IMG/VR virus record: IMGVR_UViG_3300050821_003884
Span: 16,898 to 80,897 of that record
Source: a virus
Strand: one strand, 5' to 3'
Length of the DNA: 64,000 nt
Shown here: in pieces, positions 15,506 through 35,314 of the stretch
How positions within the stretch are numbered: the stretch's first letter is position 1
Layout: each line of letters starts with the position of its first letter
Made by a program: the position numbers and the translations under genes
The notes under the pieces: model-generated
Database searches by the model: none
What the model was told of the DNA's origin: nothing
What the model saw: only the letters and a program-made list of their open reading frames with translations

Positions 15506-15616
15506 TTTATTTTCTCCCGGTATTTGGTTTGAGTTAAGGTTCTGGCACCCAATCCTCGTTCGGATGCGGTGTGCCGCGTTCTGTACTGCCGTTCTGTTAT
15601 TGTTAGATTATATACA

Positions 15617-15633
15617 TAGCACCATGGTGTCAA
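15617..15633 (-). promoter_or_regulatory. Sigma70-like promoter with palindromic operator (copy 2)
   Basis: Minus strand TTGACACCATGGTGCTA...TATAATCT. Confidence 0.65.
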
Positions 15634-15789
15634 GCACTATTTTAAATTATTTCTGCCTTACCTATAACACTCTAAAAGAGTTACGTAGGTAACCGTTGAT
15701 CACTGCTAAACGTGTTTAGGTATAAAGCGGGGGAGTCTTGCTCGGGTCAAAGGCGCAGGGTAGGCGCAATTGCTGCTGCCATGTTCTTT

Positions 15790-15987
15790 TTAATTTTCCC
15801 GGCGCACGGCAACCAATTTGCCGCTGGCATCCCGGATGAGATGGCGCGGTCTGACTGGCTGCGGGGGCTTGCGCTCAGGAAGCTGAAAGCGGGGACTCTC
15901 AGGCAGGAAGCGGCATTCGTTGTCGGGGTTGTGGTCTTCGTTGCAGTAGGGGCAACCGGGCAGGATATGGGCTGGCTTGGTTCTCAT
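15790..15987 (-). CDS. Small hypothetical protein
   Basis: CPYC..H...C motif. Confidence 0.4.
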   Translation of the reverse strand: MRTKPAHILPGCPYCNEDHNPDNECRFLPESPRFQLPERKPPQPVRPRHLIRDASGKLVAVRREN

Positions 15988-15991
15988 GGGT

Positions 15992-16225
15992 TTAATTCCC
16001 GCCAGCCAAAATAGCTATTACTAGGCAGGCTGCGACGAAGAGAGTGAAGATGACCCAGTTGCGCCTTGAATCCCTCTGAGCCTTCTTCTGTTCCTCGGTA
16101 AGGACTGGCTTCTCGGGGCGGTGGTAGGTCTTCCGCTCTTCAAGGTAGCTCCCAAAGGCGCATATCAGCCACCAGCATCCCACAGCAAGGGCGACAATAA
16201 AAATAAATGCAATCATTTCGATCAC
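15992..16225 (-). CDS. Small two-TM membrane protein
   Basis: Two hydrophobic segments; start motif upstream. Confidence 0.6.
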   Translation of the reverse strand: MIEMIAFIFIVALAVGCWWLICAFGSYLEERKTYHRPEKPVLTEEQKKAQRDSRRNWVIFTLFVAACLVIAILAGGN

Positions 16226-16241
16226 TCCTGTAAATCTGTTT

Positions 16242-16451
16242 CTACCTGTTGCAGGGCACCCAGAACGAATGGGTGTCCGTACTCTTGGTTTTCTGGTTGT
16301 AGTGCGTGTGCTGGTAGTTGCACTCCTCGCCGCCGTCCGTCATCCTGCTCCCGGTGAAGTAAGCCGTCTCGCCATCCGTGGGGCAGGATGCGGTCAGGTC
16401 GTAGACGGCCATGCCCAGCAGGGCCAAAGCAATTAAAAGTGTACGCTTCAA
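16242..16451 (-). CDS. Small secreted Cys protein
   Basis: MKRTLLIALALLG signal-like N-terminus. Confidence 0.55.
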   Translation of the reverse strand: MKRTLLIALALLGMAVYDLTASCPTDGETAYFTGSRMTDGGEECNYQHTHYNQKTKSTDTHSFWVPCNR

Positions 16452-16912
16452 GCGGTTACCTCTCTTTGCTCTGCGGCAAGGTAATCAAGCAGCGGCACCT
16501 GTGACTCAGGCTTCAGGATGACGGCCTCTTGTGTGCTGTAGTCGAAGACGAAATACGCGCCCTCGCCAGCCTTGGCGACTGCGGCCCGGATGCGGCGCGA
16601 AGCCCCGTCCGTGCATTTAATTTGCAGCCCCTGACTGCCCGTGCGCAGGGCAACGTGGAAGCGCTTCACCTCAACGTCTTTCGAGATGAGCACCTCGTCA
16701 GGGTCGGTGATGATGCACTCAGGCTTGCTGCCTACCCACCATGTTGGCTTTGGGCTAGGCTCGCCCTCAGACGTGTTTACAGGCGTGGTCAGGCTCTGAC
16801 CAGCGCGGCTGAAGTCGATGGCCGTCCAGATAGCGATGCCGCCTCTGTCCCGGAGCCAGCCAGCAATCTTCTCGGCATTGTCCGGTGTCGTGATGTACGG
16901 TTTTAAATTCAT
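16448..16912 (-). CDS. Hypothetical protein
   Basis: Start motif upstream. Confidence 0.65.
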   Translation of the reverse strand: MNLKPYITTPDNAEKIAGWLRDRGGIAIWTAIDFSRAGQSLTTPVNTSEGEPSPKPTWWVGSKPECIITDPDEVLISKDVEVKRFHVALRTGSQGLQIKCTDGASRRIRAAVAKAGEGAYFVFDYSTQEAVILKPESQVPLLDYLAAEQREVTA

Positions 16913-16951
16913 GCTTACCCTCCCGGTAAAGCGGTTTACAGGTGTTCAGGG

Positions 16952-17497
16952 TTACGAGCGCCAGTCGGTGACGCGGGTCGCGTAGAGCCGGTCGAACTCG
17001 GCGCGATCTTCGGCAGTCAACTCTTTCCGGTACTCGGCTAGGTTTCTGTCAAGGTCGTCGGCGCTGCCGATGAATGCTCCGCCGCCGTCTGAAGCCGTAG
17101 AGCCAGCGGTGACATAGCCGTCTGACGTGATGGACAGGCTGTAGAGCCGTCCGCCGCGCCCGTCACGTGCGCCATAGTCGTGACCGATAATCGCGCCCAC
17201 GATGGCTACCAGCTTGGGGCTGAAGTTAAAGTGGCTGGGGTCGATGCGCTCTGCGAACTCGTCCACCTTCGGCGCTTCTGTCGCTGCGACCTTTTCGGCA
17301 ATCACGACGGATGTGCGAACGCCCGTCTGGTACTTCTTGCCGTCAGGTGCCTTGTACGATCTGGATGTGACTTTGGTCATAGTCTGGTCGCTGCTGGGGA
17401 ACTTAAACTCCTGTCCCACGGTCAGGTACTTGAAGATTGAATTGCCTTGGCCTTGTGTCAGTGCTGCTAAATCTCGAAACTCTGTGTCGTTGCTCAT
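16952..17497 (-). CDS. Hypothetical protein
   Basis: Start motif upstream. Confidence 0.65.
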   Translation of the reverse strand: MSNDTEFRDLAALTQGQGNSIFKYLTVGQEFKFPSSDQTMTKVTSRSYKAPDGKKYQTGVRTSVVIAEKVAATEAPKVDEFAERIDPSHFNFSPKLVAIVGAIIGHDYGARDGRGGRLYSLSITSDGYVTAGSTASDGGGAFIGSADDLDRNLAEYRKELTAEDRAEFDRLYATRVTDWRS

Positions 17498-17542
17498 AGT
17501 CCCTCCCGGTGACTTGCTGTAAAGATGTTTTAGCGTATGTGG

Positions 17543-17770
17543 CTATGCTTGTTCCGGTGCCTCGGCCTTCACTGCCACCAGCCCAGCCGTGGATGACCAT
17601 GTGTAGTTGACTGGCTCGTCGGACTCGACTACCTGATACGCCTCGGCCAGCGTCCACGCCGCAATCTTGTTGCGGCCATAGGCTTCTGCCTCTTCGCGGG
17701 TCGCCAGTGCGACGCCGTTCAGGTAAAACTTGGGGTCGTCGTAGGTTTTAATTTCTGCTTTGAAGCTCAT
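17543..17770 (-). CDS. Hypothetical protein
   Basis: NG..LATREEAEAY...VESDEPVNY phage motif. Confidence 0.6.
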   Translation of the reverse strand: MSFKAEIKTYDDPKFYLNGVALATREEAEAYGRNKIAAWTLAEAYQVVESDEPVNYTWSSTAGLVAVKAEAPEQA

Positions 17771-17809
17771 GCGCTTTCCCTCCCGGTGAAAGACTTGTGT
17801 AAAGCGGTT

Positions 17810-18280
17810 TTAGCGTGACATGTGGCGGCGGCGTATCTCGGTTGCGTTCGCCGGGATGCGCTTTCGCACGTCCAAGTGATAGTGATAGGGTGCGGACTCA
17901 AGCTCTCGCTTCAGGTCTGCGTACTCTTCAGGCTTCGCCAGCTTGGTACGGTAGATGATGTCTAGGTTCGCTGCGCCATGCTGCCCGATGTGCTGATAGC
18001 TGTCGCAGTCGTACTCGCTGGTGCCGGGGTCGCAGGGGAACAAGGCGATTACATCGCCACCCTCGGACTTCGGCCACTTGCGAAAGATCACTGGCGTTTT
18101 GCACATCGCGAACCAGTGGCCAGTCGGCCCGATGACTACGGTGTGATTCGCCTCATCCTGTTGGCACTCGCCGCAGTAGTTAAACTCAAACGTTTGCCGT
18201 AAAAACTCTTTTACGGTGATGCCGCTCGCGTCTTTCTTCGGCGGCACAGGTGCGAATCGGTTGCCAGCGGCTTGTGTCAT
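17810..18280 (-). CDS. Conserved phage protein
   Basis: VIFRK...DVIALFP...SYQHIGQH motif. Confidence 0.65.
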   Translation of the reverse strand: MTQAAGNRFAPVPPKKDASGITVKEFLRQTFEFNYCGECQQDEANHTVVIGPTGHWFAMCKTPVIFRKWPKSEGGDVIALFPCDPGTSEYDCDSYQHIGQHGAANLDIIYRTKLAKPEEYADLKRELESAPYHYHLDVRKRIPANATEIRRRHMSR

Positions 18281-18459
18281 TGCGCGGCCTCCGTTTTCGC
18301 CTTGCAGCCTTCGCAGTAGTACGCGTTGGCGCTGAATGGCCTTGCCGTAACGTCGGCATAGACGGCTTCACGATCATCCTGCAATGCCTTGCCGCACCCA
18401 GCGCAGCGGTACTGTAATGTTGCCGCGTGGTTCTTGTTTACTTTCACGAACTTGTGCAT
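18277..18459 (-). CDS. Small zinc-finger protein
   Basis: CAGC...CEGC; RBS motif. Confidence 0.5.
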   Translation of the reverse strand: MHKFVKVNKNHAATLQYRCAGCGKALQDDREAVYADVTARPFSANAYYCEGCKAKTEAAQ

Positions 18460-18503
18460 TTACCCCTCCCGGTAAAACGCGTACTGTCCTCATCCTACAT
18501 AGG

Positions 18504-18520
18504 TGACACCATGGTGTCAA
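18504..18520 (-). promoter_or_regulatory. Sigma70-like promoter with perfect palindrome TGACACCATGGTGTCA (copy 3)
   Basis: TTGACA-N17-TAGGAT on the minus strand. Confidence 0.65.
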
Positions 18521-18565
18521 GTATGCGCAGGTTTCAGGGTGATGGTGGGGCCGTAGCCCCACGGG

Positions 18566-18889
18566 TTAGCTTCGGCTAAGGTAGGGAGTGGCTGGCCCTT
18601 CCATGAGCACCTGAAGGACCGTCTGCCCGTCAAGGGTCGTGAATGACCAGTGGGGCTTCGGCAGGTAGACGTGGAACCGCGCTACCCAGTCCTTTGTTTT
18701 GCTGCCCTCGCTCTGTACGTGCGCAAGGCGCTCCTCAAAGTCCTCGCGCTCTTCCTCGGGCAGGGTATAGCGCAGCGCCTCGATAGCTTGCTCCAGCGCT
18801 TTGGGGTCGTGCTGCTTCAGGTGGGTGTGGATGTGCGGGGTCAGTATCAGCACCTGTAATGCGTTGCCTGTTCTGGTTCCTTTTATCAT
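18566..18889 (-). CDS. Hypothetical protein
   Basis: Start motif upstream. Confidence 0.55.
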   Translation of the reverse strand: MIKGTRTGNALQVLILTPHIHTHLKQHDPKALEQAIEALRYTLPEEEREDFEERLAHVQSEGSKTKDWVARFHVYLPKPHWSFTTLDGQTVLQVLMEGPATPYLSRS

Positions 18890-18938
18890 TTAGCTCTCTC
18901 CTGTAAATAAGTTCTGGTGAGTGGTTGCGGTTTAGCTG

Positions 18939-19202
18939 CTACCTGCCCTCTTGGGTTGCTATCACTTTCTGCGCGTTGTGGATGCCAGCGGTTAACTTCT
19001 GGATCAGCTTCTCAGCCTCAAAGACAGTCATGCGGACATTCAACTGTAGGGGATTGTCGGTGTCGTGCCTCTGAAGGATCAGCACCAGCAGGGGTGTGCC
19101 TTCCGGCGTGGTGACGTTCAAAAGCTCCGGGTCAATGTTCGCCATGTTGGACGGGTAATGAGACTGCCCGTGTGACGTTGCAAATCTTCTGCTTACTTTC
19201 AT
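18939..19202 (-). CDS. Hypothetical protein
   Basis: Start motif upstream. Confidence 0.55.
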   Translation of the reverse strand: MKVSRRFATSHGQSHYPSNMANIDPELLNVTTPEGTPLLVLILQRHDTDNPLQLNVRMTVFEAEKLIQKLTAGIHNAQKVIATQEGR

Positions 19203-19241
19203 TGCTTCTCCTGTAAATCGGTTTCCGTGTGTTGATCTTGC

Positions 19242-19565
19242 TCAGTCCAGCGGCGGGAATTTTAATCCCGCCTTGTAACCAGCCTTCGTATAGAAAGCCT
19301 TGATCGGTGCCAGCGTCTTCTTAAGCTCTGCCTCAGTCGGCTCGGGCAGTCGCGGATATGCGCCCATGCCAGCGAACATGTAGCCATACAGCAGGGTCAT
19401 CAGCTTGTCGGCTGCTTTCGCTGGCAGCTTCCAGTAGGGCCAGCCGTCGCTGTGCTCGTTGACTTCGTTCTTGAACGCGTCCAGAAACCTCGCGTACTTG
19501 CCCAGAACAGGATGCGACTGGAACCTCTGCGCTGCCTCTTCAACTTCCCATTGATTCATCCACAT
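19242..19565 (-). CDS. Hypothetical phage protein
   Basis: NEHSDGWPYW motif; start motif upstream. Confidence 0.6.
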   Translation of the reverse strand: MWMNQWEVEEAAQRFQSHPVLGKYARFLDAFKNEVNEHSDGWPYWKLPAKAADKLMTLLYGYMFAGMGAYPRLPEPTEAELKKTLAPIKAFYTKAGYKAGLKFPPLD

Positions 19566-19740
19566 ATTTCTATTCCTCCCGGTTGTATAAATTTGTTTTC
19601 AGGTGATTGGGCTTTGCAGTACCCACCATTAACCATGTCTGCATGCGGTTGGATAATTCCACTCTTACTGACGACTTCACGCTTGCAGATGGGACAAAGG
19701 ACAATGCTAATTTTGGCGAGTTGCTTTCTCTGCTTTGGTG

Positions 19741-20220
19741 TCATGGCTTGACTCTCAGCGCGGCAATCTCCAGCTTGATCGTGGTGATCTTGCCCTCAAG
19801 GTCGGCGATTTCTTTCTCGCGCTTCTCGATCTCGCGGCGCGTGTCGTCCTGCTGCGCCTCGACCAGCGCGGCCTGATTGTCTTTCAGCCAGCGCTCGACC
19901 TCGGCAGTCAGAAGCTCTGCGACCGCAACCCGTGCAGTGTGGCTGATATCGCTCTTTACGTTGCTGCCACGGCGCGAAATGTACATGTTATGGTAGAACT
20001 TCGCAGACGGGGCTTCGCCCTCTTTGCCCAGCGTCCACGTGCCTGTCGGCGACTTGTAGAAATGGGCACTGACGCCATAGGTGATGCCGCGCACGGTGAT
20101 GAAAAATCCGCCCTCGAATCTGGATGCGCTGCCCGTGTTGCAGTCGAAGAAAATATGCTCGCCGCTCGTCGGGGTAATCTCGCCCCGGAGTTGCTTTGTC
20201 TCTACTTTGAAAGATGCCAT
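19741..20220 (-). CDS. Hypothetical protein with C-terminal coiled coil
   Basis: RBS; downstream of promoter copy 4. Confidence 0.6.
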   Translation of the reverse strand: MASFKVETKQLRGEITPTSGEHIFFDCNTGSASRFEGGFFITVRGITYGVSAHFYKSPTGTWTLGKEGEAPSAKFYHNMYISRRGSNVKSDISHTARVAVAELLTAEVERWLKDNQAALVEAQQDDTRREIEKREKEIADLEGKITTIKLEIAALRVKP

Positions 20221-20262
20221 GTCTTACCCTCCCGGTAAAAGCAGTTATCAGGTTATTGTATG

Positions 20263-20279
20263 TGACACCGTGGTGTCAA
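20263..20279 (-). promoter_or_regulatory. Sigma70-like promoter with palindromic operator (copy 4)
   Basis: Minus strand TTGACACCACGGTGTCA; TAACCT 18 bp after TTGACA. Confidence 0.6.
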
Positions 20280-20512
20280 GTATTCTGCAACTCAATCGTG
20301 ACGGGGAACAGGAAGTAATACGGGCCGATAACGCGCACGATCTCATCTAGTGCGGCCTTGGCCTCTTCCTCGTCCTCCCATATCTCCAGCAAGTATCCGG
20401 AGATACGCTTCGCAGCGAACGGTGCAGCATCCAGAAGGCCCGGACACGCTACCTTGTGCCAGCCGGGGAATGATCCATCCGTCCGCCTCTGCGAGATAAT
20501 GAAGCCCTTCAT
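20276..20512 (-). CDS. Hypothetical protein
   Basis: Start motif upstream. Confidence 0.5.
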   Translation of the reverse strand: MKGFIISQRRTDGSFPGWHKVACPGLLDAAPFAAKRISGYLLEIWEDEEEAKAALDEIVRVIGPYYFLFPVTIELQNT

Positions 20513-20536
20513 GTTTGTAATCCTCTCTCCTGTAAA

Positions 20537-20728
20537 TCAGTTTGCGTGTGACGTACTTGCAAGCCCTGCGGCTCTAAGGTGCGCTGTCGCCTGTTGCGGG
20601 GTGTAGAGCAAACCATAGGGGCTGCCGGGTCGCTGTTGCGCTTCCACGCTGCCATCGGCTCTAAACTTCAGACGATAATGCGGGTAGTGTCGCCTGATTG
20701 CCGTTTTCTGCTTGGCGGTGTACTTCAT
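20537..20728 (-). CDS. Small basic protein
   Basis: MKYTAKQK...; start motif upstream. Confidence 0.55.
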   Translation of the reverse strand: MKYTAKQKTAIRRHYPHYRLKFRADGSVEAQQRPGSPYGLLYTPQQATAHLRAAGLASTSHAN

Positions 20729-20826
20729 AACTCTCTCCTGTAAATCAATTTTGGCGTGATGCGCCAATTCAGGCCCACGCATATGGGCTTGAATCAGCGC
20801 ACGGGGCAGGGGATGCCCCATGCGGG

Positions 20827-21597
20827 TTAGTTCTGCGTCTTTAGCTTGTCGGCTTCCTCGATCACTGCGACGGCTTGGATCAGCAGGTCGTGTGGACTGT
20901 TAGCGTCGCGTGGTGACGTGTGCTCACGCGCCCAGTCTGTCAGCGCTCGCAGTGCTTCCAGCAATCGCGTGTTGACTGGCTCACCTGTAGACGTGTTTTC
21001 AGGTGATGCTGTTCCCAGTTCCGCCTGAGACAACTCTTTGACGCCCACGATGGCCTCGGCCTCGGCCCATGTCAGGTCTACGGTAAAGCCGGGGGTGTCC
21101 AGAAAGACGCTCTCGCTATTGGTTGCCGTGGCTTTCGGATTCGATCTCACGGCATAAGCGGTGCGCTTGTCGGTAACAAATGTCACACGGGCATAGCCAT
21201 TCGCTGCGGGGATATTGTCGGCATCGAAGTCTACATATTCCTCATGCGTCTGTACCCAGTGATACGTTTCCCGTGCAGACACTGCGGCGTTGACAGTGAC
21301 AGGCTCGGCGTTGCGCGTCGCGCCTGTTGCTCTGTCTGTCCATGGACGCGACTCGTTCGCGGCTGTCGTGATCGCGCTCTCGTGCTGCCACGAAGTAAGC
21401 ACAGCGCAAGGCTCGGGCTGTCGCGGCCAGACGGTCTGCACAACACCGTAGCTCTGGCCCAAGTCAATCGCGATAGGCTCGCGGCCTTTGGCGATGGTGG
21501 ACGCGTAGGAGTCAGCCTCGCTGCGCGTGTCAAACTGGCGACGGGTCGCCTGTACATAGTCGCCGCTGTCGTCGCGGCAGATAACGATGAAGCTCAT
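20827..21597 (-). CDS. Hypothetical protein
   Basis: 256 aa; start motif upstream. Confidence 0.6.
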   Translation of the reverse strand: MSFIVICRDDSGDYVQATRRQFDTRSEADSYASTIAKGREPIAIDLGQSYGVVQTVWPRQPEPCAVLTSWQHESAITTAANESRPWTDRATGATRNAEPVTVNAAVSARETYHWVQTHEEYVDFDADNIPAANGYARVTFVTDKRTAYAVRSNPKATATNSESVFLDTPGFTVDLTWAEAEAIVGVKELSQAELGTASPENTSTGEPVNTRLLEALRALTDWAREHTSPRDANSPHDLLIQAVAVIEEADKLKTQN

Positions 21598-21638
21598 TTT
21601 TAATTCCTCCCGGTTGTGTAAATTGGTTTTAGTGTGAA

Positions 21639-21944
21639 TTACAGGATGCCCCCGTAGATGTTCGGGCCGAAGTCGTCTTCCGGCGGGAAGCGTACCTCGA
21701 TGCTCCAGCCATACACGAAGTCAATGTCGATCCCGTCGCCGTAAAGCTCTTCAGTCTCTTCGCTGGCGATTTTGCCGCGCAATGCGTCGGCTGTTTCTTT
21801 GGGCATGTAACTGTCGAACAGGGCAGGGTCGGGAATCAGTAGGCTCGGCTTCGTGTCAAATGTTTGCCAGTCGCCGTCTACCTCGATTTCCAGATGGAGC
21901 ACGCCGCTCGCGTCTTTCCATGCGTTATAACTTCCCGGTGTCAT
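21639..21944 (-). CDS. Acidic hypothetical protein
   Basis: Start motif upstream. Confidence 0.6.
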   Translation of the reverse strand: MTPGSYNAWKDASGVLHLEIEVDGDWQTFDTKPSLLIPDPALFDSYMPKETADALRGKIASEETEELYGDGIDIDFVYGWSIEVRFPPEDDFGPNIYGGIL

Positions 21945-21984
21945 GATGCGTTCTCCTGTAAATGTGTTTGTGTGTGATGGGTGT

Positions 21985-22188
21985 TTACGGCAGTTGCCGG
22001 ATATCGCGATGCGTCCAGCCTGAGCCTATGCTCGGCATCAGGCCAAGGACGTAATCTCTGGAGTAGGGTGTGGCGACGTGGACGTGTGCTGTGCCCTCAA
22101 TGGTGACGGTGATATCTTCCTTCTGGCGTAGCTTCTCAGCTACCCACTGCACCAGCGTCGGCCCAGTGTAGATGGCGAAGCGGTTCAT
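21985..22188 (-). CDS. Hypothetical protein
   Basis: MNRFAIY...; start motif upstream. Confidence 0.55.
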   Translation of the reverse strand: MNRFAIYTGPTLVQWVAEKLRQKEDITVTIEGTAHVHVATPYSRDYVLGLMPSIGSGWTHRDIRQLP

Positions 22189-22223
22189 GTTGCTATCTCC
22201 TGTAAACAAGTTTGTGTGTTGGT

Positions 22224-22484
22224 TTAAAGGATCGACTGAATAGCTCGCCGCATACTGGCGACTTCTTCGGCTGTGCTCTTCGGCTTCTCCGTGGCCGGGA
22301 CAGTCACGCGCTCCAGTTCCACCCATTGCTGGCCCGTGCTGTTGCGGCTGTCAGGCGTGATAAGCAGACGCGGCTTGCCCCATGAGTTCTTGACGTTCAG
22401 AACAGTGCAGAGAATTTGTAGTTGTTCAAAGCGGACTAGGACTGTCGCGCCAATTGCGGGGATCATCTCAAGTGCGGTTGTCAT
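22224..22484 (-). CDS. Hypothetical protein
   Basis: Start motif upstream. Confidence 0.6.
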   Translation of the reverse strand: MTTALEMIPAIGATVLVRFEQLQILCTVLNVKNSWGKPRLLITPDSRNSTGQQWVELERVTVPATEKPKSTAEEVASMRRAIQSIL

Positions 22485-22521
22485 TTGGCTCTCTCCTGTA
22501 AATAAGTTTGTGTGTGATGGC

Positions 22522-22686
22522 TTAGTCTTCGTACTCTGCGGTCAGCTTCTTGCTGGCCTTGCGTGCTCGCCTGTTGAAGCGTGCCTTGATCTTCTTGCGC
22601 GTTCCTGCGCGGAACCCGTAGTACTTCTTTGCCGTGGTAAGTGCGTCGTACTCGTCGCCGCCCTTGAGTGGAATCTCGCGTCTCAT
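22522..22686 (-). CDS. Small basic phage protein
   Basis: MRREIPLKGGDEYDALT...; start motif upstream. Confidence 0.6.
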   Translation of the reverse strand: MRREIPLKGGDEYDALTTAKKYYGFRAGTRKKIKARFNRRARKASKKLTAEYED

Positions 22687-22801
22687 TGCCGTGTGCTCCT
22701 GTAAATGTGTTTGTGTGTGACGCAATGCGCCAGCGCAAGCCTCTGTGCAGGGGCTTGAGTTGGCGCATGGGGCTTGTTGCGCCCCATGCGGTTGTTGTTG
22801 G

Positions 22802-24139
22802 TTAGTCGGCGACGTATACCGTCTCGCCGAAGGGTGCGACCAGTGGCTGCCCTCTGTAGTCGCGCTCTTTAGTCGCAAGCCATAGGACGGGAACCTCCGG
22901 CGCTACCAGCGGGAAGGTGCCCTCAAGGTCAGTGATGCAGATGCAGCAGACAGGCTGTGACTCATCCTGTTCTATCGCTTCCAGCGCGGGAATGAAGTTC
23001 GTTCCGCCGCCGCCTTTTGGTTCCCACGTCAGCGGCTCGCCGCGTTCCAGCCGTACAATGCTGCACACTCGCGCATCCGCCATGTACAGCGTTACGCCCG
23101 AGGGGTCGCATTCATCTAGTACGCTCTGCACGATCTGGCGAGCGAAGTCCAGCGCCACATCGTCAATGCTGCCCGATGTGTCTACCATGATCGCCACCTC
23201 GCCCATGCGGTGAGCATAGAGCGCGGGAAGGTACGTACCCTGCGCAAGGTAACGCGTGTTTGGACGCGTCCAGCTATAGTCGCTCGCTGTCCGTTCCTGC
23301 ATCCAGCGCAGTACCAGACTGCGCACGTCTACGCGGGGCTTCAGCGCGTCGGCAATCACACGCGCCAGACCGCCGGGTAACTCGCCCTGCGACTTGGCCA
23401 GCGCTGCCGCTGTTGCGACCGCCTCCTTCCACTCCTGCTCGCTCGGGGCTTCGTCGCCGTCTGCATCCGGGCCAACCGGAGCATCTCTGACTTCGCCCTG
23501 ACTGTTGCCGCTGCCTTGCTGCTCGCCGCCGCCTTCGCCGTCGCTGCCTTCGCTCTGGCCTTCGCCGTTGCCGTCACCATCCGACTCGCCGCCTTGCTCG
23601 CCGTCACCGTCGCCGGTGCCGTCGCCTTCGTCGTCAGCGTCTCCGGGTTGGCCGGGGTCGCCGTTGTCGTCGGGCTGCTCTTCGTTCTCCTCATCTTCGT
23701 CGGGCTGCGGTTCAGGTTCCGGCTTAGGTTCCGGCTCCTGCTCTTGCTGGTGGCCGTGAATCCATTCCGCCGACTTGCCAATCTCCTCGCCCTCTGCATA
23801 GTACGCATCCGGCGGGAGGGTAAAGCCAGACGTTTGCAGTTCCGTATTGATCGCCTTGTCGCAAGCGATATTCCACGGCTTCATACTGCGACCGCCACGC
23901 CGCCACGGATGGCCCAGCGCGACGTGCAGTACCTCATGCGCTACCAGTCCGACAAGCTCGCCGTGGCTCAGTGAATCGACAAACGCCGGATTGTAGCCCA
24001 GCGTTCGCCCGTCTACCCATGCGGTTTCGCATGTTGGGTCGGCTTGCACCTTCAGACGCAGCGCAAGCGAACCGAAGAACGGCTGCTCTAAGATCAGCGA
24101 AGTGCGAGCCGCAATAAATTTACCGTGTGCTGTACTCAT
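22802..24139 (-). CDS. Metallopeptidase-vWA protein (DUF2201-like)
   Basis: AHEVLH (HExxH), acidic G-rich linker, MIDAS DTSGS, GGGTNF, ITD. Confidence 0.85.
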   Translation of the reverse strand: MSTAHGKFIAARTSLILEQPFFGSLALRLKVQADPTCETAWVDGRTLGYNPAFVDSLSHGELVGLVAHEVLHVALGHPWRRGGRSMKPWNIACDKAINTELQTSGFTLPPDAYYAEGEEIGKSAEWIHGHQQEQEPEPKPEPEPQPDEDEENEEQPDDNGDPGQPGDADDEGDGTGDGDGEQGGESDGDGNGEGQSEGSDGEGGGEQQGSGNSQGEVRDAPVGPDADGDEAPSEQEWKEAVATAAALAKSQGELPGGLARVIADALKPRVDVRSLVLRWMQERTASDYSWTRPNTRYLAQGTYLPALYAHRMGEVAIMVDTSGSIDDVALDFARQIVQSVLDECDPSGVTLYMADARVCSIVRLERGEPLTWEPKGGGGTNFIPALEAIEQDESQPVCCICITDLEGTFPLVAPEVPVLWLATKERDYRGQPLVAPFGETVYVAD

Positions 24140-25074
24140 TAGCTAAACAACCCCTTCCCAAACGTTTTCTGCATGTCGTCTAAAATGCTCTGTGCTCGTG
24201 CTGCCGTTTCTGCGCGGACTGCCGGAACCTTGCGCAGCGTCTCCGGTTCACTCATGGCGAGCAATTCCGTTTCGCGCCTGTACTTCTCCAACCGTGGATC
24301 GCCTGTGACGTTCAAGCGTTCCAACACGTCGCAGAGGTCACGCGCATTACCAATCAAGGTGTCGCGAAAGATCGCATCCGGTGAAGACAGTGCGGAAACA
24401 ATCTTCTCGACTCGCTCGTATAAGCGGCCAATCGCTTCTTTCTGCGCGGCTTCAAACTGTGCCTTGACGCGGTTTTCAGCGCTTGACGCAATCGCCTGAA
24501 TCTCAGCGTCGGACAGTGCAACCCGGAAGTCGCCGCCACTCGGAACAGGATTAAATTCAATCCCGAATGAGAAGCGCTTCGCCATGTCCGAAGGGTAATC
24601 GCCATGCTCAAACATGCCGTTCAGGATCGTTTTTGCCGCCTCGCGCAGTGCCGGATAGTCGTGCAGGAATTCAGCCAGCAAGCGATTAAATTCATGCTGC
24701 CGTTCACGGATGCCATCCGTGTACGCTTGGTAATTCTTGATCGGTAGCAACTGCCAGCCATCCGACCATTTGAGCGTTTGCTCGTAATGCCAGACGCGAA
24801 CCGCCGCGATGTGTGCCGTTAGCGCCTTGTGACTGTTGGCGTGTTGCACCTGCTTCAGCGCTTGCATGTTCTTGACACTGAAGCGTGTTTCGTCGTGAAT
24901 GCTCAGCTTGGACGGAAGCAGGTCTTTGTTGAAACGTCCCGCCCCTTCGCTTGCGCCTTGCGCTGCCAGTGTTTCGCGGGTCACTCGCTTGTCGAACTTC
25001 TTGCCGCTCCAGCTTGAAATGCTGAGCGATACCAGAATTGCGCGTGCGTGTAAGTCTTGCTTCGTGTTGCTCAT
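24139..25074 (-). CDS. DUF3150-like protein of the AAA/vWA module
   Basis: ILVSLSISSWSG N-terminus; lies between AAA and vWA genes. Confidence 0.55.
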   Translation of the reverse strand: MSNTKQDLHARAILVSLSISSWSGKKFDKRVTRETLAAQGASEGAGRFNKDLLPSKLSIHDETRFSVKNMQALKQVQHANSHKALTAHIAAVRVWHYEQTLKWSDGWQLLPIKNYQAYTDGIRERQHEFNRLLAEFLHDYPALREAAKTILNGMFEHGDYPSDMAKRFSFGIEFNPVPSGGDFRVALSDAEIQAIASSAENRVKAQFEAAQKEAIGRLYERVEKIVSALSSPDAIFRDTLIGNARDLCDVLERLNVTGDPRLEKYRRETELLAMSEPETLRKVPAVRAETAARAQSILDDMQKTFGKGLFS

Positions 25075-25145
25075 CTCTTTTACCCTCCCGGTAAACGTGT
25101 TTGTGTGTGTTCGTGGCGAGCGTTCCCACGCGCTCGCCAGTGAAT

Positions 25146-27027: not shown

Positions 27028-27939
27028 TGTGTTTCCTCCCGGTACGCTGGATGCGCCCATGTAAGTCCCATTGAATGAAGCTTGCATGGACGCATAGGAA
27101 CCTCATAAATCCCTATGCGACCGAATCTTTTTGTTGTGTCTCATGTATCTCTGTTTGCGCTTTGCTTTGCGCTTGTCGTACTTGCGACCGGAGAGCCTTT
27201 GCCCTCATCGTTCCTGATCCACCGTTAGTGCAGGGCCGTTAACCCCTGCCTAGTACCTCCGAATCCGCCTGTTACCGTCAACTTTCGCTGCTCCCATCCT
27301 GCCTCGCGCCTTCGCGCCTACGTTGCCAGATGTTTAGGTAACCCGTTCGTTTTCTTCAGCATCCCGTGTTCTTAAATCAGGTATCGCTTTCAGAACTTAT
27401 GCAATTGTCAAAGATCAGTACGGTTACCGAAGTAACCGCCGCGCCTTAGCGCCGAACTCACTAAAACCACTATACACGCAATGTGTCCTTAACACACATA
27501 TATTTCAACTATTTTATAACCTTTACAATCAATCACTTGGAACGTTTTCCACAGAGAGTTATATTTAACACTCCGGTGCTAGTCGCAACCGTATATATAG
27601 GTGTGAACGCGTACGGATGCCGGGACAGGATACGGACACCTTATATAGAGCAGGGAATCCAGCGCGGGAGCACTGCCGGGGTTTCCCGGCTCCTGCCGGG
27701 AATTAAATCCAGCGGAAACCGCCGCATTTCTGATCGCTTTATCTTCGCCCCTAATACACAAAAAGCCAGTGAATGTGTGCATCTGTATGATTACAAAGGC
27801 ATTGCAGCGCCTGTTTTCAAAACGCGTTCGTTTTAAGCGTGTATTAGGGCACAGGTAAGGGTGCAGGCTCACTTTTTTACCCGGTGCCTAGAAGGTGCCT
27901 CAGAGCGCGATTAAAGGGCATCCTAGCGAAGGCCAAAAA

Positions 27940-27972
27940 TGTGGAAAAGCCTGTGGAAAAGCCTGTGGATAA
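27940..27972. promoter_or_regulatory. Three tandem DnaA-box-like sites
   Basis: TGTGGAAAA, TGTGGAAAA, TGTGGATAA at a 12-bp period; the last is the reverse complement of TTATCCACA. Confidence 0.55.
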
Positions 27973-28238
27973 CTTTTGCACCCAGTGTTTACGCGGCTGA
28001 AATAAACTGCACACGCGTGTTTCCCTTTGTTTGCGCGTCGGACATGCGTCTGTCCCTTTGTTTATGCGGGTGTTAGCTGCTGTTGCCTTAATACACGTTT
28101 CCATGCTTGCGTTTTCGCCCCGGAACGGTGGCCGGGACAGGATGCCTGTACTCTCCTGCTAAAACACCTGACTCTCTGCCGGGAGTGCCTCCCGGCGGGT
28201 GCTCCCGCCGCGTAGGCGCATCCGCTGTGCATCCGCTG

Positions 28239-28910
28239 CAAACGCCGCAAGCTTCGCCATGGCAAACGCCACGCCAACGCGCTACAACCGCCGCCAGACG
28301 CCAGCAAACGCCACGCCACGAATCGCCAGCACTGCCGCCACGGAACGCCGCCGCCGCTGCCGTGTGTTCGCGCATGGATGGCAGGGTTTGGCCGATGCTG
28401 GAAACGATCTCGCCAATTTTCGCCGCGCATTTTATTCCGCGCAATGTCCTGTAAACGCGTTTGTCCGCATTGTCCTTTTTTCCGTCCACGTGGCGCAAAC
28501 CCGCATGGATACAGGGGTTTTAGCGCCTCAGAGTCTCATTCTGTACAATCGGACTTCAGCCCCGGCCTCGCCTCAGCCCCGGCCTCGCCGGACACCTGTA
28601 AACGCGTTTGCGCACCTCGAAGTCCTCGAAGTCCTCGCCGGAGGTTGTCCCGCACCCCCACCTGCTGCTACAGCTATAACTCATTTTCCGCCTCTTGCCT
28701 TCTTCCTTCTCCAGCCGAAGGCGCAGCTTTTCGCCACCGTACGGGGCTGAAGGCGCAGCTTTACCCTGAAAAATTCACAGCGGTGGAAAATAAAAATTTT
28801 CGGCAGCCGGATAATTCCATACGTGGCGATGATAAGTTGAATGGCAACAATATATTGCCGCGATCTTGGCTCTGTACTTACCGGGTAAAAGCGCAGCTTA
28901 GGCGCAGCAT
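28239..28910. repeat. Cluster of short direct repeats in the non-coding divergence region
   Basis: GCAAACGCCACGCCA x2, CCTGTAAACGCGTTTG x2, CAGCCCCGGCCTCGCC x2, CCTCGAAGT x2+, GCGCAGCTT x3. Confidence 0.65.
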
Positions 28911-29011
28911 GTGTATGGAATTATGGGGGTTACGGGTAGAAATTGCTGGAAAAATATGCACGAACGGTGTACATAACTAGTGGACACAATTGGTGCTCAC
29001 GATTGGTGCTT

Positions 29012-29837: not shown

Positions 29838-30161
29838 ATGGCGGAACAACCGTTGCGGGAACTTTACCAGCGTCTAAACCATTTGCTGTACGACGCCTCG
29901 CTGACTATCGACCACTTCGAAGCCAGCCCGGAACTGGACAGGCTGCCCAACGTGGCCGACATGGGAGCGCGTCGGGTGGGTTACCCGGAAACGGAGAAGT
30001 ACTGCCGGTTCAAGGTGGACCAGATGATCGCGCATGCCGAAGCCATCCACGACGAAATGGACAGGGTGGCAAAGGTACTGGAAAGGCTGGCGGCTGAAGT
30101 GCAGCCTTCCGTGGCGGAAACGGGTCCGTGGCGCGAGCTTTTACGTTTTAATAAAAAGTAA
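29838..30161 (+). CDS. Hypothetical protein directly upstream of the array
   Basis: GGGAGGGG RBS. Confidence 0.6.
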   Translation: MAEQPLRELYQRLNHLLYDASLTIDHFEASPELDRLPNVADMGARRVGYPETEKYCRFKVDQMIAHAEAIHDEMDRVAKVLERLAAEVQPSVAETGPWRELLRFNKK

Positions 30162-31775
30162 GCGCCATCAGAAGTAGAGCGTCAAGCCAAAGAAATCGTG
30201 CGTGCCAAGTAATTTGCGTGAGCCAACTGATACGCGAGCGCCATGAAGGGAGAGTGAGCCGCTATGCTGGAGAGCGCCAAATGAAGGGAGCGGTACACTG
30301 GGGCGTCCGAATCATGGCCGATGAGAGTACCACAGTGTCAGAGTGAACCAAACGAGTGATATAAGGGGTTTTTGTACATTAACCATTGTCTAGGCGAGCA
30401 CCACGAACAGCGAGTGAATCATGGGACATGAGAGTGCCAAGAGGCGGGAGTGAATCAAGCAAATTGAGAGTACCGGGAAAAGGGAGTGGCGAGCCATTTG
30501 CGGATGCGAGTGCCAAAGCAAGCGTGCGAGCCAGCCTAAGTGAGCGACAGCCGTTCTTGATACGAGCGCCATGGAGTGGGAGCGAACCATATCTTGAGTG
30601 AGCGCCAAAATGGTGGTGTGAACCACCGAAATTGCGAGTACCAAAGTAAATGCGTGAACCGGAAAGCTATGAGAGCACCAGAATCAGGGAGTGAGCCAAA
30701 GATCGTGAGAGCGCCAAAGGCCGAGGAGCGAACCATCATTGCTGCGAGCACCATTAAAGTTGCGTGAATCAGTAATCATGCGAGCACCAAAAGAGGTGAG
30801 TGAATCAGACATGACGAGAGCGCCAAGATCAGCGAGTGAACCAGTAATTATGCGAGCACCAGAATAATAGCGTGAACCAATCTAGCAGCGAGCACCAAGA
30901 CGATAGAGTGAATCATGCAAACTGCGAGTGCCACGCCCGGAGAGTGAACCAAAGTATGAGCGGGTGCCAAACCAAATGCGTGAATAAACGAATGATACAG
31001 GTGGCTTTTATAATTTTAATTTCAGCCAAAATTACTTGCGAGCGCCATCGTAAGAGTGAACCAAGTCTTTGGCGAGTGCCGGGAATCCCGCGTGAGCCAA
31101 TAGGTAGTGCGAGCGCCAAAGTGACAGTGCGAACCGAAAGACGCGAGATGCGCCAAAGAAAATGCGTGAACCGTAATGAAAGTGAGCGCCAAGTTCAGAG
31201 CGTGAACCAAGTTGATTGCGAGCACCATTAACGGCGAGTGAACCAACATGGATGTGCGTGCCAAGCGCATGGAGTGAAATGAGTGATACCGGGGCTTTTG
31301 CTTTTCAAACCATTACATCGGCGGGTGCCAATAAACGAGCGTGAAATTAACCAGTTCAAATGCGCAGTACCAAATAATCCGCGTGAACCACAAAGTAGTG
31401 CGAGCACCACAACACCGGCGTGAACCATATGCACCGCGTGTGCCATAGTAAAAGCAAAAGCCCCGGTATCGCTCGTTTAACCAACCTTACGGCGAGCGCC
31501 AAGTTGGAAGCGTGGAACCGGAATCAGAGTGAGCGCCAAATACGCTGAGTGAAACCATGGGTGTTGCGAGCACCAGTAAGACTGCGTGAACCAAGATCAG
31601 GGAGAGTGCCAATCGATGAGAGTGAACCAAGTACACCGGGAGTTACCAAAGGAGTTGAGTGAACCAAAGAGTGTTGCGAGTGCCATAACTGCGGAGTAAC
31701 CAACCCACAAGCGAGTACCAAAGATTACGCGTGAACTAATTCATTTGCGAGCGCCAAGGAATCGGAGTGAACCAA
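30161..31775 (+). repeat. TIGR-like dual-repeat guide array, segment 1 (~40 units of 36 nt)
   Basis: Alternating G(A/C)GTGAACCA and GNGAG(C/T)(A/G)CCA repeats separated by 8(-9)-nt variable spacers. Confidence 0.85.
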
Positions 31776-31794
31776 TCAGCAGGGGAGGAGGACC

Positions 31795-31953
31795 GTGAAA
31801 ACTTACACCGTGCTGCTCAGGGACCGCAGTTATCACGAAATTAAAGCCATGAACGAAAACAGCGCTTACAACAAGGCCCTGCGCCGCTTCGGAATCCATA
31901 GCGTCTTTGCCGTCTGGCGGACCCGATCAGCGCCCGGAGTCTTTAAGGATTAA
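31795..31953 (+). CDS. 52-aa ORF embedded in the array
   Basis: GGAGGAGG RBS, GTG start, MKTYTVLLRDRSYHEIKAMNENSAYNKALRRFG...; no repeats inside. Confidence 0.6.
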   Translation: MKTYTVLLRDRSYHEIKAMNENSAYNKALRRFGIHSVFAVWRTRSAPGVFKD

Positions 31954-31962
31954 GGGAACAAC

Positions 31963-32250
31963 AGCCAGTGTAGATGCGAGCGCCAAGATACCAGTGTGAG
32001 CCGATGTACAGCGAAAGCCATCTTTGACGGGAGTACCGGAAGGATTGAGTGAACCAATGTCGAAGGTGAGCACCACGGTATAGGAGTGAACCAATAGATG
32101 CGAGAGCGCCACAGCCATAGCGTGAACCAGCTTGATAGTGAGTGCCAGATATAGGGAGTGAACCAGAACCCTAGAGAGCGCCAAGATTGAGGAGTGAATT
32201 TGAAAGAAGTTACCCCGGATCGCGTGCGAGTGCCGAATCCAAGGAGTGAA
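31963..32250 (+). repeat. TIGR-like array, segment 2 (~7 units)
   Basis: Same repeat alternation up to the Tas start codon. Confidence 0.85.
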
Positions 32251-32259
32251 TTTTAATTT

Positions 32260-33276
32260 ATGAGCACCATCGCACCCATCGCTGAAGTCATGGAGCCGCT
32301 CAAGCGGCTTACGCGGGATTTAGCCAAAGCCGCCGTCACCCTGTCCGCGCACGAGGCGCGGTTTCTGGTGGACGCCTACTACATGATGCAGAAGAACCGC
32401 ATCGCCGCCGCGCATCAGATTCGTACCCTGAGCGCGGGCAACGAACCCCACACCGTGCTGGACTGGCTGGAAACCCAGAGCGAGATGCTGGAATCGCAGA
32501 TCAAACGCGCTCTGGACAAGTGGACGGACGCGAACCCGGTCGGCATCTGGGCAAAGAGTATCACCGGCATCGGCCCCGTCATCGCGGCGGGATTACTGGC
32601 GCATATCGACATCACCCACTCGGAGACGGCGGGGCATATCTGGTCCTTCGCCGGACTCAATCCCGAGATGGTGTGGAAGAAAGGAGAGAAGCGGCCTTTC
32701 AACGCGTCGCTCAAAACCCTGTGCGCCTTCAAACTGGGCGAGTCGTTCGTGAAGGTGCAGGCGAATGAAAACGACATCTACGGCAGGGTCTTCGCCATGC
32801 GCAAGAAGCAGGAAGCGGAATACAATGTGGCGGGCAGGTTTGCCCAGATAGCCGCGACGAAGGCGGCGATGGTTGGCAAGTCCACCGACGCGTACAAGGC
32901 GTACAGCGCCAACCTGCTGCCCCCGGCGCACATCCATGCGCGGGCCAGACGCTACGCGGTAAAACTGTTTTTAGCCCATTACCACATGGTGGCTTATTTC
33001 CAGCACCACCAGCGGCTGCCGCCCTTTCCCTACGCCTTCTCCCATCTGGAAGGGCACATCCACTTCATCGAGCCGCCGCATGCGGATTTGATTCCGGGCC
33101 TGCCTGCGGCGCTGAATATCTACCAGTTAGAGATGCGCAACCGGCCAAGGAATTTTAATCCACGACAACCAAAAGCTATGAGCGCACCAATGCAGATGAG
33201 TGAACCAGTGTCGCCGGGTGTACCAAGAAACGAGAGTGAACCGAAGCCGAAAGGCAAAAGGAAGCGCAAGGCGTAA
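32260..33276 (+). CDS. tasA: Nop/IS110-related RNA-binding protein without a nuclease domain (TasA-like)
   Basis: Coiled coil (LVDAYYMMQKNRI), SITGIGPVIAAGLLA and IWSFAGL motifs, HIHARARRYAVKLFLAH; no DEDD RuvC, HNH or IS110 catalytic SG; flanked by 36-nt arrays. Confidence 0.8.
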   Translation: MSTIAPIAEVMEPLKRLTRDLAKAAVTLSAHEARFLVDAYYMMQKNRIAAAHQIRTLSAGNEPHTVLDWLETQSEMLESQIKRALDKWTDANPVGIWAKSITGIGPVIAAGLLAHIDITHSETAGHIWSFAGLNPEMVWKKGEKRPFNASLKTLCAFKLGESFVKVQANENDIYGRVFAMRKKQEAEYNVAGRFAQIAATKAAMVGKSTDAYKAYSANLLPPAHIHARARRYAVKLFLAHYHMVAYFQHHQRLPPFPYAFSHLEGHIHFIEPPHADLIPGLPAALNIYQLEMRNRPRNFNPRQPKAMSAPMQMSEPVSPGVPRNESEPKPKGKRKRKA

Positions 33277-34052
33277 ACCACAGTACTTGCGAGCACCAAG
33301 CAGTCGGAGTGAACCAGAGAATCGGAGAGCACCAAGCCAAGGGAGTGAACCAGCACACGAGAGAGCACCAAGGAGCGCGAGTGAACCAGTAAGTTAGCGA
33401 GTACCAAGAACCGCGAGTGAACCATTAGCAGTTGCGAGCACCAGAACTAGGGAGTGAACCAGTAGCCACGTGAGCACCAATATCGGTGAGTGAACCATCA
33501 TGGTTGTGAGCACCAGAGGAAACACGTGAACCAAGATTTCCGTGAGCGCCAATGGACGAGAGTAAACCGGAAAGCGGGAGAGCACCAAGCGGATAGAGTG
33601 AACCAAACCAGCAATACCGGGGCTTTTGTACTTTGAACTAATTCATCAGGGAGCGCCAAAAAGAATGCGTGAACCATGGGCCATGCGGGTGCCAAAGCAC
33701 GAGAGTGAAAACCATTCCGCGTGAGCGTACCAAAAATGTCGCGTGAACCAGAGTCGTTGTGAGTGCCATACAAAGGGAGTGAGCGGGTTTTGTACTTAAC
33801 CGATTATCAGGCGAGCGCCAGCGTCGAGGAGTGAACCACGAGCCGCGAGAGCACCAATGCTGCGGAGTGAACCAGAAGGAGATGAGAGCGCCAAGGCAGG
33901 GAAGTGAACCAGTGTACCAGTGAGCACCAAAATGAGTGAGTGAACCATTAGATTAAGGGAGCACCAATAGTACGGCGTGAACCAAAAAGCGAGAGAGCGC
34001 CAAGTTGGAAGTGTGAACCAAAGGACATGAGAGTGCCAGACAAAGGGAGTGA
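33167..34052 (+). repeat. TIGR-like array, segment 3 (~22 units)
   Basis: Example AACCA-CAGTACTT-GCGAGCACCA-AGCAGTCG-GAGTG; starts inside the 3' end of the Tas ORF. Confidence 0.85.
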
Positions 34053-34753: not shown

Positions 34754-35314
34754 ATGAGCTGCCCACGCGACGGAAGGCAGAGCCACCCCCTGTTCCAAAC
34801 GTGGCGTTCCATGGTGCGTCGGTGCCACGATCCAAAGTTTAGGCACTATAAGAATTACGGCGCACGTGGCATTCGCGTCTGCGATGTATGGCGACGGTCA
34901 TTCTGGCAGTTCGTGACTGACGTAGGCCAGCGGCCAGCGGGCCGTAGCTTAGACCGGGAGGATAATAACGGTCCTTATTCTCCCGGCAATGTTAAATGGG
35001 CTACACGCGAGGAACAGGGTCGAAACACGCGCTTCAATCGTCTGCTTACGGTCAACGGTGTTACGAAAACATTGCAGGAGTGGAGCAATGAAACGGGTCG
35101 CCCGAAGAGCACTCTTTTTAATCGCATCCGACGCGGCTGGACGGGCGAGGAGGCTGTGCTCACCCCCGTGCGCGGAGAAAGCGTCTTGAGCGTGTGCCAT
35201 GAGCTTGGGTTGAACCCTAATACGGTAGCGGGCAGACTACGCCGTGGCTGGACATGGGAGCAAGCGATTGCTAAACCTGTTCAGGTCCATCGAAGGAGAG
35301 ATTATGTCCACTAA
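34754..35314 (+). CDS. HNH-like endonuclease with repeated DNA-binding tail
   Basis: WRSMVRRC...YGARGIRVC..W...SLDREDNNGPYSPGNVKWAT; RIRRGW/RLRRGW repeats. Confidence 0.75.
   Translation: MSCPRDGRQSHPLFQTWRSMVRRCHDPKFRHYKNYGARGIRVCDVWRRSFWQFVTDVGQRPAGRSLDREDNNGPYSPGNVKWATREEQGRNTRFNRLLTVNGVTKTLQEWSNETGRPKSTLFNRIRRGWTGEEAVLTPVRGESVLSVCHELGLNPNTVAGRLRRGWTWEQAIAKPVQVHRRRDYVH

Follow-up and report, generated by a model that had tools for sequence, protein, structure and literature searches.

What is the ~30-bp sequence that repeatedly interrupts the guide units of a phage TIGR array, and does the TIGR-TasA system need it? The sequence was met in a 64,000-nt window (positions 16,898 to 80,897 of IMG/VR record IMGVR_UViG_3300050821_003884; positions below are those of the window) taken from an 80.9-kb phage, a metagenome-derived viral contig. 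An earlier note on this DNA had proposed that it was a protein-binding site, an internal promoter, a processing signal or a scar left by the addition of guide blocks. With a probability of about 0.5, it is instead a linker at array junctions that carries no guide, left over from array ends and spread by segmental duplication and by one inverted duplication. Most likely the linker marks the joining and subsequent copying of sub-arrays rather than a signal that the system requires.

Results and discussion

The array lies beside a Tas protein that has a Nop/IS110-C-terminal-like RNA-binding domain and neither HNH nor RuvC, as expected of a TIGR-TasA locus. Two 8-10-nt repeats, the loop repeat GAGCRCCA and the edge repeat GAGTGAACCA, alternate at a half-unit spacing of 18 nt in the manner of dual-repeat TIGR arrays and, with ~74 units, this is among the largest arrays that could be read and is visibly modular (Table 1). 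The only Pfam match of TasA is PF02371; it also matches phrog_4285 and, among PDB sequences, 9mty (E 9e-13) and TasH (E 5e-8). It has more than 5000 homologues, the closest of which (P0001, 96% identity) is also 338 aa long. The C-terminus of TasA is read through array units.

Table 1 Linker copies and neighbouring features of the TIGR array
Feature	Position	Strand	Remarks
TIGR array, upstream part	30160..31780	+	blocks b1-b5, ~42 units of 36 nt
Linker copy 1	30351..30380	+	30-nt insert; profile E 7.5e-5
Linker copy 2	30986..31023	+	most diverged copy; profile E 6.5e-5
Linker copy 3	31277..31306	+	left arm of inverted pair; profile E 6.9e-7
Block b4	31307..31449	+	four guide units inside inverted pair; 7/7 repeats GCG-prefixed
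Linker copy 4	31450..31478	-	inverted; profile E 1.4e-7
52-aa ORF	31795..31953	+	strong Shine-Dalgarno sequence; between array blocks; no family match
Array block b6	31955..32255	+	~8 units
tasA	32260..33276	+	Nop/IS110-C-terminal-domain protein without nuclease domain, 338 aa
TIGR array, downstream part	33160..34052	+	blocks b7-b9, ~24 units
Linker copy 5	33606..33635	+	30-nt insert, full edge repeat to AACTA; profile E 4.1e-6
Core-only copy	33783..33797	+	GCGGGTTTTGTACTT, between GAGTGA and AACCG; below profile threshold

A search with the linker consensus, allowing up to three mismatches, gave 3 matches against 0 in 100 shuffled sequences. A profile was then built from the copies themselves, which makes the test partly circular for them, and run against the whole 80.9-kb record. 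Five sites were returned (E 1e-7 to 8e-5), four direct and one inverted, all of them inside the array, and the next-best match (E 0.6) lay outside it. The first claim of the earlier note, that a repeated element divides the array into blocks, was borne out, as was the claim that it breaks the 36-nt register: the loop-to-loop distances across the linkers are 71, 78, 67, 56 and 71 nt instead of the expected 36 or 72. No copy was found elsewhere in the 80.9-kb genome and the linker is absent from its two orphan arrays; nor does any spacer, on either strand, have a 9-mer in common with linker sequence outside the repeats.

A further, partial copy had been placed near 33779. Only the core is present there and it falls under the profile threshold, but its context supports it, as TTTTGTAC occurs just four times in the genome and three of these are at linker junctions. 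Within b4, positions 31333-31353 may be the deletion remnant of another linker, and 32206-32224 in b6 resembles the inverted linker only weakly and non-significantly, giving no profile match.

The linker has a regular anatomy. AAAC is followed by GAGYGATACC, which is a degenerate edge repeat, then by the 16-nt G4-T4 core GGGGCTTTTGYWYTT, and lastly by AACCA, an edge repeat truncated at its 5' end. The view that it resembles neither repeat type was not quite right, since its left half is a decayed form of the edge repeat. Every copy is placed midway through an edge repeat, between the halves GTGAA(CC) and AACCA, and these half-repeats match the natural array ends of the same genome. Copy 1 has a full edge repeat (30341-30350) on its left and AACCA (30381-30385) on its right, copy 3 is preceded by the 3'-truncated edge repeat GAGTGAA, and the inverted copy has AACCA on its right and a loop repeat plus only 4 nt on its left. 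Copy 2 has ~8 additional AT-rich bases, like the junction directly upstream of tasA.

What follows the direct copies is also conserved. The first spacers after all four are more alike than random spacers (p ~0.002), and the third spacers after copies 1 and 5 (30350 and 33605) agree at 7/8 positions, which equals the background maximum. The similarity of these first and third spacers suggests duplication of a module rather than independent insertion of the linker. Across 36 nt of flank, similarity past the first spacer is mostly at background level, a point that counts against the relic reading. Variants of the repeats that differ between blocks (GTGAATCA in b2 only, and the GCG type in b4) were also considered as a sign that the blocks had separate origins, and this was dropped as the signals are weak.

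Arrays beside TasA proteins of 75-79% identity were then compared. They run uninterrupted for up to ~57 units (L020) and contain neither this linker nor any other; the motif is absent from every homologous array that could be read. This speaks against a general requirement for it in TIGR arrays and, as the arrays of these related phages are equally long without it, the linker does not appear to be a needed signal. Only tasA and its arrays are common to the phage and its relatives; the flanking genes differ. In public collections (viral contigs and 185,579 species genomes), searched with the exact 16-mer and with 20-21-mer patterns, there were 25 matches, all unrelated to arrays, and no match to the 5-kb locus came from a distant blastn search of 50,697 phage records.

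The right half of the linker suggests where the core may have come from: it resembles an intrinsic terminator's descending arm and U-tract, and TTTTG(C)TTTT is present as a U-tract. The right-half pattern (20-21 nt) was found in 10 unrelated contigs, in 6 of which it forms a terminator's descending arm and U-tract with the complementary arm just upstream; it is identical to this part of terminators ending in ...ATACCGGGGCTTTTG... in unrelated phages and bacteria. Unlike these terminators, the direct copies all lack an ascending arm beside them. Complementarity is offered by the inverted copy alone; as this lies downstream of its nearest partner, the U-tract would fall inside the loop. No hairpin or partner arm was seen at any direct copy, and a scan of the + strand found no intrinsic terminator at the copies. 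Local folds at the direct copies (z -0.1 to +1.3) were no better than those of shuffled sequences and gave no consensus structure, and the one Rfam match, a sub-threshold snoRNA, lay outside the linker. The suggestion of a processing signal thus gained no support, as conserved local RNA structure was not found. It counts against the relic reading that the terminator origin is drawn from look-alikes in unrelated genomes and that an intact ancestral terminator was not found.

The preferred reading, a relic of array ends, would account for the junctions as follows. Each can be read as an array end (a full or 3'-truncated edge repeat), then AAAC, a decayed extra edge repeat, the core and an array start, the last consisting of the 5'-truncated edge repeat AACCA and a conserved first spacer; such an order is the residue that end-to-end joining of arrays would be expected to leave. 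The core would be the remnant of a terminator-like tail that has lost its folding, so that transcription probably reads through. The direct copies may have arisen by unequal recombination between array repeats, the junction module being duplicated together with neighbouring half-units, and the single inverted copy by an inverted duplication, or a flip, of a local stretch. The linker would be transcribed in the pre-tigRNA and then presumably discarded when TasA cuts at the adjoining edge repeats. It would have no role that the system requires and, as a side effect, the RNA of copies 3 and 4 would form a stem looping out four guides.

This pair deserves separate attention. The near-perfect inverted repeat that had been described around ~4 units was recovered as 31274-31305 and 31450-31481 (32 nt, 91% complementary), with arms 144 nt apart, or four units. 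The accompanying claim that the inverted copy calls for an event at the DNA level also stands, since an inverted duplication or a flip is required. Copies 3 and 4 are identical at 27/30 positions, far closer than any other pair of copies, and their similarity stops sharply at both ends. Both features are less in keeping with the relic reading than with a recent event in which just the element was copied, or with selection for pairing.

It is possible, if unlikely, that the linker is a functional RNA element, the direct and inverted copies pairing in the pre-tigRNA to admit RNase III or to act as a clamp that stabilises it. The stem would then part the upstream guide blocks from the small ORF and the tasA stretch, or isolate four guides. 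On the array strand the copies at 31277 and 31450 form a continuous stem of 29-30 bp around these guides (MFE -83.6 kcal/mol, z -5.1), the inverted copy could pair with copy 5 as well, at 22/24 positions, and the arms are conserved above other pairs of copies. Yet inverted repeats fold equally on either strand, and with one inverted copy to four direct ones most copies are left without a partner. At both mismatches the stem has G-U in RNA of the array strand but C-A in that of the opposite strand, which hints at selection on the RNA stem and so counts against the relic reading, but two transitions would both yield G-U by chance about 1 time in 4. No long stem was found in the related arrays; the family does not, then, need one.

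A trace of insertion or recombination at the DNA level, left as guide blocks were added or shuffled, is likewise improbable. Either a 30-nt element would have entered edge repeats and duplicated AACCA or, alternatively, four guides would have been brought in by a cassette of 202 bp (31277-31478) whose terminal inverted repeats measure 29 bp. The 30-nt inserts of copies 1 and 5 are indeed flanked by AACCA and by AACCA/AACTA, both orientations are seen with an identical right-hand junction, and genes for a resolvase-family recombinase and for a tyrosine integrase are carried by the phage. However, the apparent duplication of AACCA is the array's own half-repeat, so that no target-site duplication of the kind left by a MITE can be recognised, and there are no copies at unrelated sites, in the orphan arrays or in the other genomes and viral contigs searched. 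The conserved downstream spacers again indicate module duplication.

Terminal inverted repeats, as in a MITE, are present only in the pair of copies 3 and 4. Removal of 31277-31478 restores a canonical edge repeat and the 36-nt spacing, and all seven repeats of b4 are of one variant; restoration of the repeat is, though, automatic for any two edge-repeat junctions. It is doubtful that this stretch is a discrete four-guide cassette inserted exactly mid-edge-repeat, with the solitary 30-nt copies flanked by AACCA as footprints of the same process. Serine-invertase sites (hix/gix) span ~26 bp, with two inverted half-sites around a 2-bp core, and occur as an inverted pair. Here an inverted pair and a resolvase-family gene exist, but on direct reading the linker has no dyad symmetry. 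The scar proposed in the earlier note survives in a weaker form only, the direct copies looking like segmental duplication of a junction module and not like independent insertions.

There is also little to recommend an internal transcription signal, whether one promoter per block or an antiterminator of the boxA kind that sustains RNA polymerase through a long untranslated array. The linker does sit exactly where an independent array would start. The internal promoter suggested earlier nevertheless finds no support: on the array strand no sigma-70 site (-35 and -10 boxes 16-18 nt apart) is present at any copy, and a promoter scan of 5.3 kb gave just two weak minus-strand matches, fewer than in shuffled sequences. 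boxA elements are known to aid long CRISPR arrays, and the bases past the core resemble the boxA consensus GNTCTTTAANA (bioRxiv 10.64898/2026.07.09.737519), with 9/11 matches in copy 5 and 7-8/11 in the others. The TCTTT core of boxA is not conserved, however; the similarity falls outside the conserved positions and is partly owed to the array's own AACCA, and chance alone would give 8/11 matches dozens of times on each strand. Being rich in G and poor in C, the array RNA is a poor Rho substrate, which counts against an antiterminator, and the relatives would transcribe ~57 units without such an element. The inverted copy, moreover, would face the wrong direction. The gene-start motif of the phage's left arm (CACAC-N2-AAAC-N3-TTTAC plus a Shine-Dalgarno sequence), which has AAAC and TACCGGG in common with the linker, was also tried and rejected, as a profile of 16 instances recovered the left-arm sites and no linker copy even at E up to 1000.

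A binding site for TasA or the small neighbouring proteins is very improbable: ~25 nt are conserved and the left half retains an edge-repeat-like GAGYGA box, which Tas proteins recognise in RNA, but there is no dyad symmetry, no copy at promoters or elsewhere in the genome and no recognisable DNA-binding family among the small proteins, and relatives bearing the same TasA lack the linker. Finally, an assembly artefact is highly unlikely: mis-joins might be feared in repetitive arrays of a metagenome-derived contig, but the inverted copy lies mid-contig between unique spacers and differs from its partner at 3 positions, so that it is no perfect fold-back.

Conclusions

The junctions can be compared with the termini of dual-repeat TIGR arrays (Faure et al. 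2025, PMC12045711), in that the same two half-repeats occur at each junction, with the G4-T4 core, which resembles a terminator tail, between them. They differ from array ends in that "end" and "start" are just 16-30 nt apart in one continuous array, the terminator cannot fold, and the junction module recurs in five copies, one of them inverted. A stem-loop TIGR-TasA locus on a Peromyscus gut contig (PMC12045711) also has one tasA and several sub-arrays and, like the phage, has arrays upstream and downstream of tas as well as inside its 3' end, an arrangement also reported in bioRxiv 10.64898/2026.09.09.750476. Its array is of the stem-loop type whereas that of the phage is dual-repeat, and its separators are ~450 nt of intergenic DNA with no short repeated element.

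The origin, growth and maintenance of TIGR arrays are acknowledged to be an open question, adaptation machinery not being known (PMC12045711). Boundaries lying exactly mid-edge-repeat, together with paralogous junction modules, point to joining and segmental duplication as a route of growth. If the inverted pair is neither functional nor mobile, the linker is a lineage-specific relic of modest interest. If it is either of these, it would be directly relevant to how arrays are processed or expanded, and the 202-bp cassette, if real, would be the first visible sign of a mechanism by which TIGR guide blocks are moved or added.

Results and discussion

The window comes from a phage record of 80.9 kb in IMG/VR, with a CheckV completeness of ~78%. 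In its TIGR array the loop repeat GAGCRCCA and the edge repeat GAGTGAACCA alternate in an 18-nt step, with 8-10-nt spacers between them. The tasA product has PF02371 as its sole Pfam domain, matches phrog_4285 and, at the sequence level, the solved chains 9mty and TasH, and has >5000 homologues; judged from these matches, it is a TasA without a nuclease domain, belonging to the family that PMC12045711 describes. The TIGR-TasA system of this phage is of a kind already known.

Features of the array and its surroundings (window positions unless marked genome)
Feature	Position	Strand	Remarks
Dual-repeat TIGR array	30160-34052		~74 units of 36 nt
tasA, 338 aa	32260-33276		array on both sides
52-aa ORF	31795-31953		embedded in the array
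Linker, direct copies	30350, 30986, 31277, 33605	+	profile search
Linker, inverted copy	31449-31478	-	profile search
Linker, core-only copy	33783-33797		below profile threshold
Two orphan arrays, same repeat pair	genome 10424-10651, 12567-12780		~6 units each; before window start
HNH endonuclease gene, phrog_3377	34754-35314		just downstream of array; winged-helix tail
HNH endonuclease gene, phrog_1314	22802-24139

The linker, a ~30-nt non-guide element between blocks of the array, was searched for with the consensus of the earlier note (≤3 mismatches), giving 3 sites against 0 in 100 shuffles; a profile built on the copies found just five sites across the entire record, the next match having E 0.6. 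From loop to loop, the spacing across the copies is 71, 78, 67, 56 and 71 nt, so the 36-nt register is broken at each, as the earlier note had held. The partial copy it placed at ~33779 survives as a core sharing TTTTGTACTT with copy 33605, but fails as a profile match. A candidate second inverted copy at 32206-32224 was not significant in the profile search. Of the only four genomic occurrences of the octamer TTTTGTAC, three are at linker junctions. The linker is absent from both orphan arrays of this genome, which lie far from tasA and flush between genes.

Every copy is placed between the two halves of one edge repeat: on the left the repeat is full or 3'-truncated (GAGTGAACCA, GAGTGAA or GCGTGAA) and on the right is its 5'-truncated half, AACCA. 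Copies 30350 and 33605 carry inserts of exactly 30 nt, with AACCA on either side (AACTA to the right of 33605). The linker itself consists, in order, of AAAC, a decayed extra edge repeat (GAGYGATACC vs GAGTGAACCA) and a 16-nt core with a G-run and a T-run, GGGGCTTTTGYWYTT; it had been described as resembling neither repeat type, yet it contains one of them in decayed form. As the spacer that comes first after each of the four direct copies is more conserved than expected (p ~0.002 against random spacer sets) while similarity across the full 36-nt flank is mostly at background level, the repeated module spans ~55 nt and comprises the linker and the first half-unit. The third spacers of 30350 and 33605 agree at 7/8 positions, the background maximum. 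At 31333-31353 an edge repeat is interrupted by ATT and preceded by AAACGAGCG, which resembles a linker that has lost its core.

When the right half of the linker was scanned in public collections, matches were found in unrelated contigs only. The 20-21-nt pattern matched 10 contigs, and in six it belongs to a clear intrinsic terminator, supplying the U-tract and the descending arm, whose complement lies immediately 5'. No such arm is present at any direct copy in this phage, a terminator scan of the array strand found none at the copies, local folds there were no better than shuffles and the copies share no consensus structure. The sole sequence complementary to the linker is the inverted copy.

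The most economical reading, to which we give about an even chance (roughly 0.5), is that the linker arose where the end of an array, a disabled terminator tail and the start of an array became fused. Unequal recombination inside the array would then have produced further copies and one inverted duplication the inverted copy, and the linker would be transcribed and discarded as the tigRNA matures.

The inverted repeat reported in the earlier note is real: 31277 and 31450 are complementary over 32 nt (91%), enclose four units, and at 27/30 identical positions are the closest of all copy pairs, their likeness stopping abruptly at both ends. The right junction of 31450 is the usual one (AACCA, then a spacer); on its left only 4 nt separate it from a loop repeat, which means that the array lacks one spacer and half an edge repeat at that point. 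The four enclosed units (31307-31449) have seven repeats, every one the GCG-prefixed variant.

In array-strand RNA the pair would form a continuous 29-30-bp stem, and a functional stem, such as a site for RNase III, is an unlikely though conceivable alternative. Both differences are G-U on the array strand and C-A mismatches on the opposite strand, an asymmetry with a chance probability of ~1 in 4, and the arrays of relatives with TasA 75-79% identical (loci L020/L021/L023, L022, L024 and L028) contain no long inverted repeats. Equally improbable is a mechanism acting on DNA, by insertion or as a cassette. If 31277-31478 is deleted, the flanks close to a perfect edge repeat in register, but the outcome would be the same for any two edge-repeat junctions and so adds no independent evidence. 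Against a recombination site, the linker has neither dyad symmetry nor copies outside the array. The phage encodes a resolvase-family serine recombinase, with an open frame of 220 aa, and a tyrosine integrase (window 233-676 (-) and genome 470-1024).

For the internal promoter suggested earlier, no sigma-70-type site was found on the array strand. The bases 3' of the core match the boxA consensus at 9/11 in one copy and 7-8/11 in the others; such matches are frequent by chance expectation, they fall on positions other than the conserved ones, and AACCA supplies part of the match. Rich in G and poor in C, the array RNA should attract little Rho. No guide is complementary to the linker. The left-arm gene-start motif, CACAC-N2-AAAC-N3-TTTAC, lies at window 8200-25100 (-) before at least 16-23 genes, joined to AGGAG or CCGGGAGG immediately 5' of the start codon; kinship with the linker through a common AAAC ... 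TACCGGG was not significant by profile search.

The tasA frame encodes 338 aa, where relatives have ~295 aa. Because the usual stop, at an AAAATCC junction, is out of frame, translation continues across ~3 array units and an insert of 31 nt foreign to the array (33245-33275), which encodes a lysine/arginine-rich tail. bioRxiv 10.64898/2026.09.09.750476 mentions arrays within the 3' end of tas. The tasA core lies between two exact copies of the 10-nt sequence GAATTTTAAT in direct orientation (32248-32257 and 33150-33159); similar AT-rich motifs occur inside copy 30986 (31011-31022) and end the last array block (~34046). An array unit (31084-31098) is complementary to the tasA 5' coding part (32306-32320) at 14/15 positions, with weaker pairs in L020 and L024; a rough chance estimate of ~0.3 such pairs per 4 kb suggests coincidence, autoregulation by a self-targeting guide being the conceivable alternative.

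At the strand switch, window 27100-28980 has almost no ORFs, many short tandem repeats (periods 9-17 nt) and CCTGTAAACGCGTTTG on either side of a 170-nt segment, and could be an origin or regulatory region. The sole linker look-alike outside the array (28508, weak, E 0.6) lies here.

Conclusions

The TasA 75-79% relatives have the identical two repeat types and different genes flanking tasA and the arrays; there, arrays lie flush between genes without terminators. The earlier note had proposed looking for the motif in other TIGR arrays: no foreign linker occurs in those of these relatives, which reach ~57 units in L020. A TasA 96% identical and equally unusual in length (P0001, 338 aa) is encoded on a 22.5-kb contig. 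Since all readable relatives lack the linker and have equally long arrays, the comparison of sequences argues against an indispensable role as promoter, antiterminator or processing signal. A repeated, orientation-variable linker in a dual-repeat TIGR array goes unmentioned in the consulted text of PMC12045711 and of the bioRxiv preprint, and the linker is therefore rated as new within a known TIGR system.
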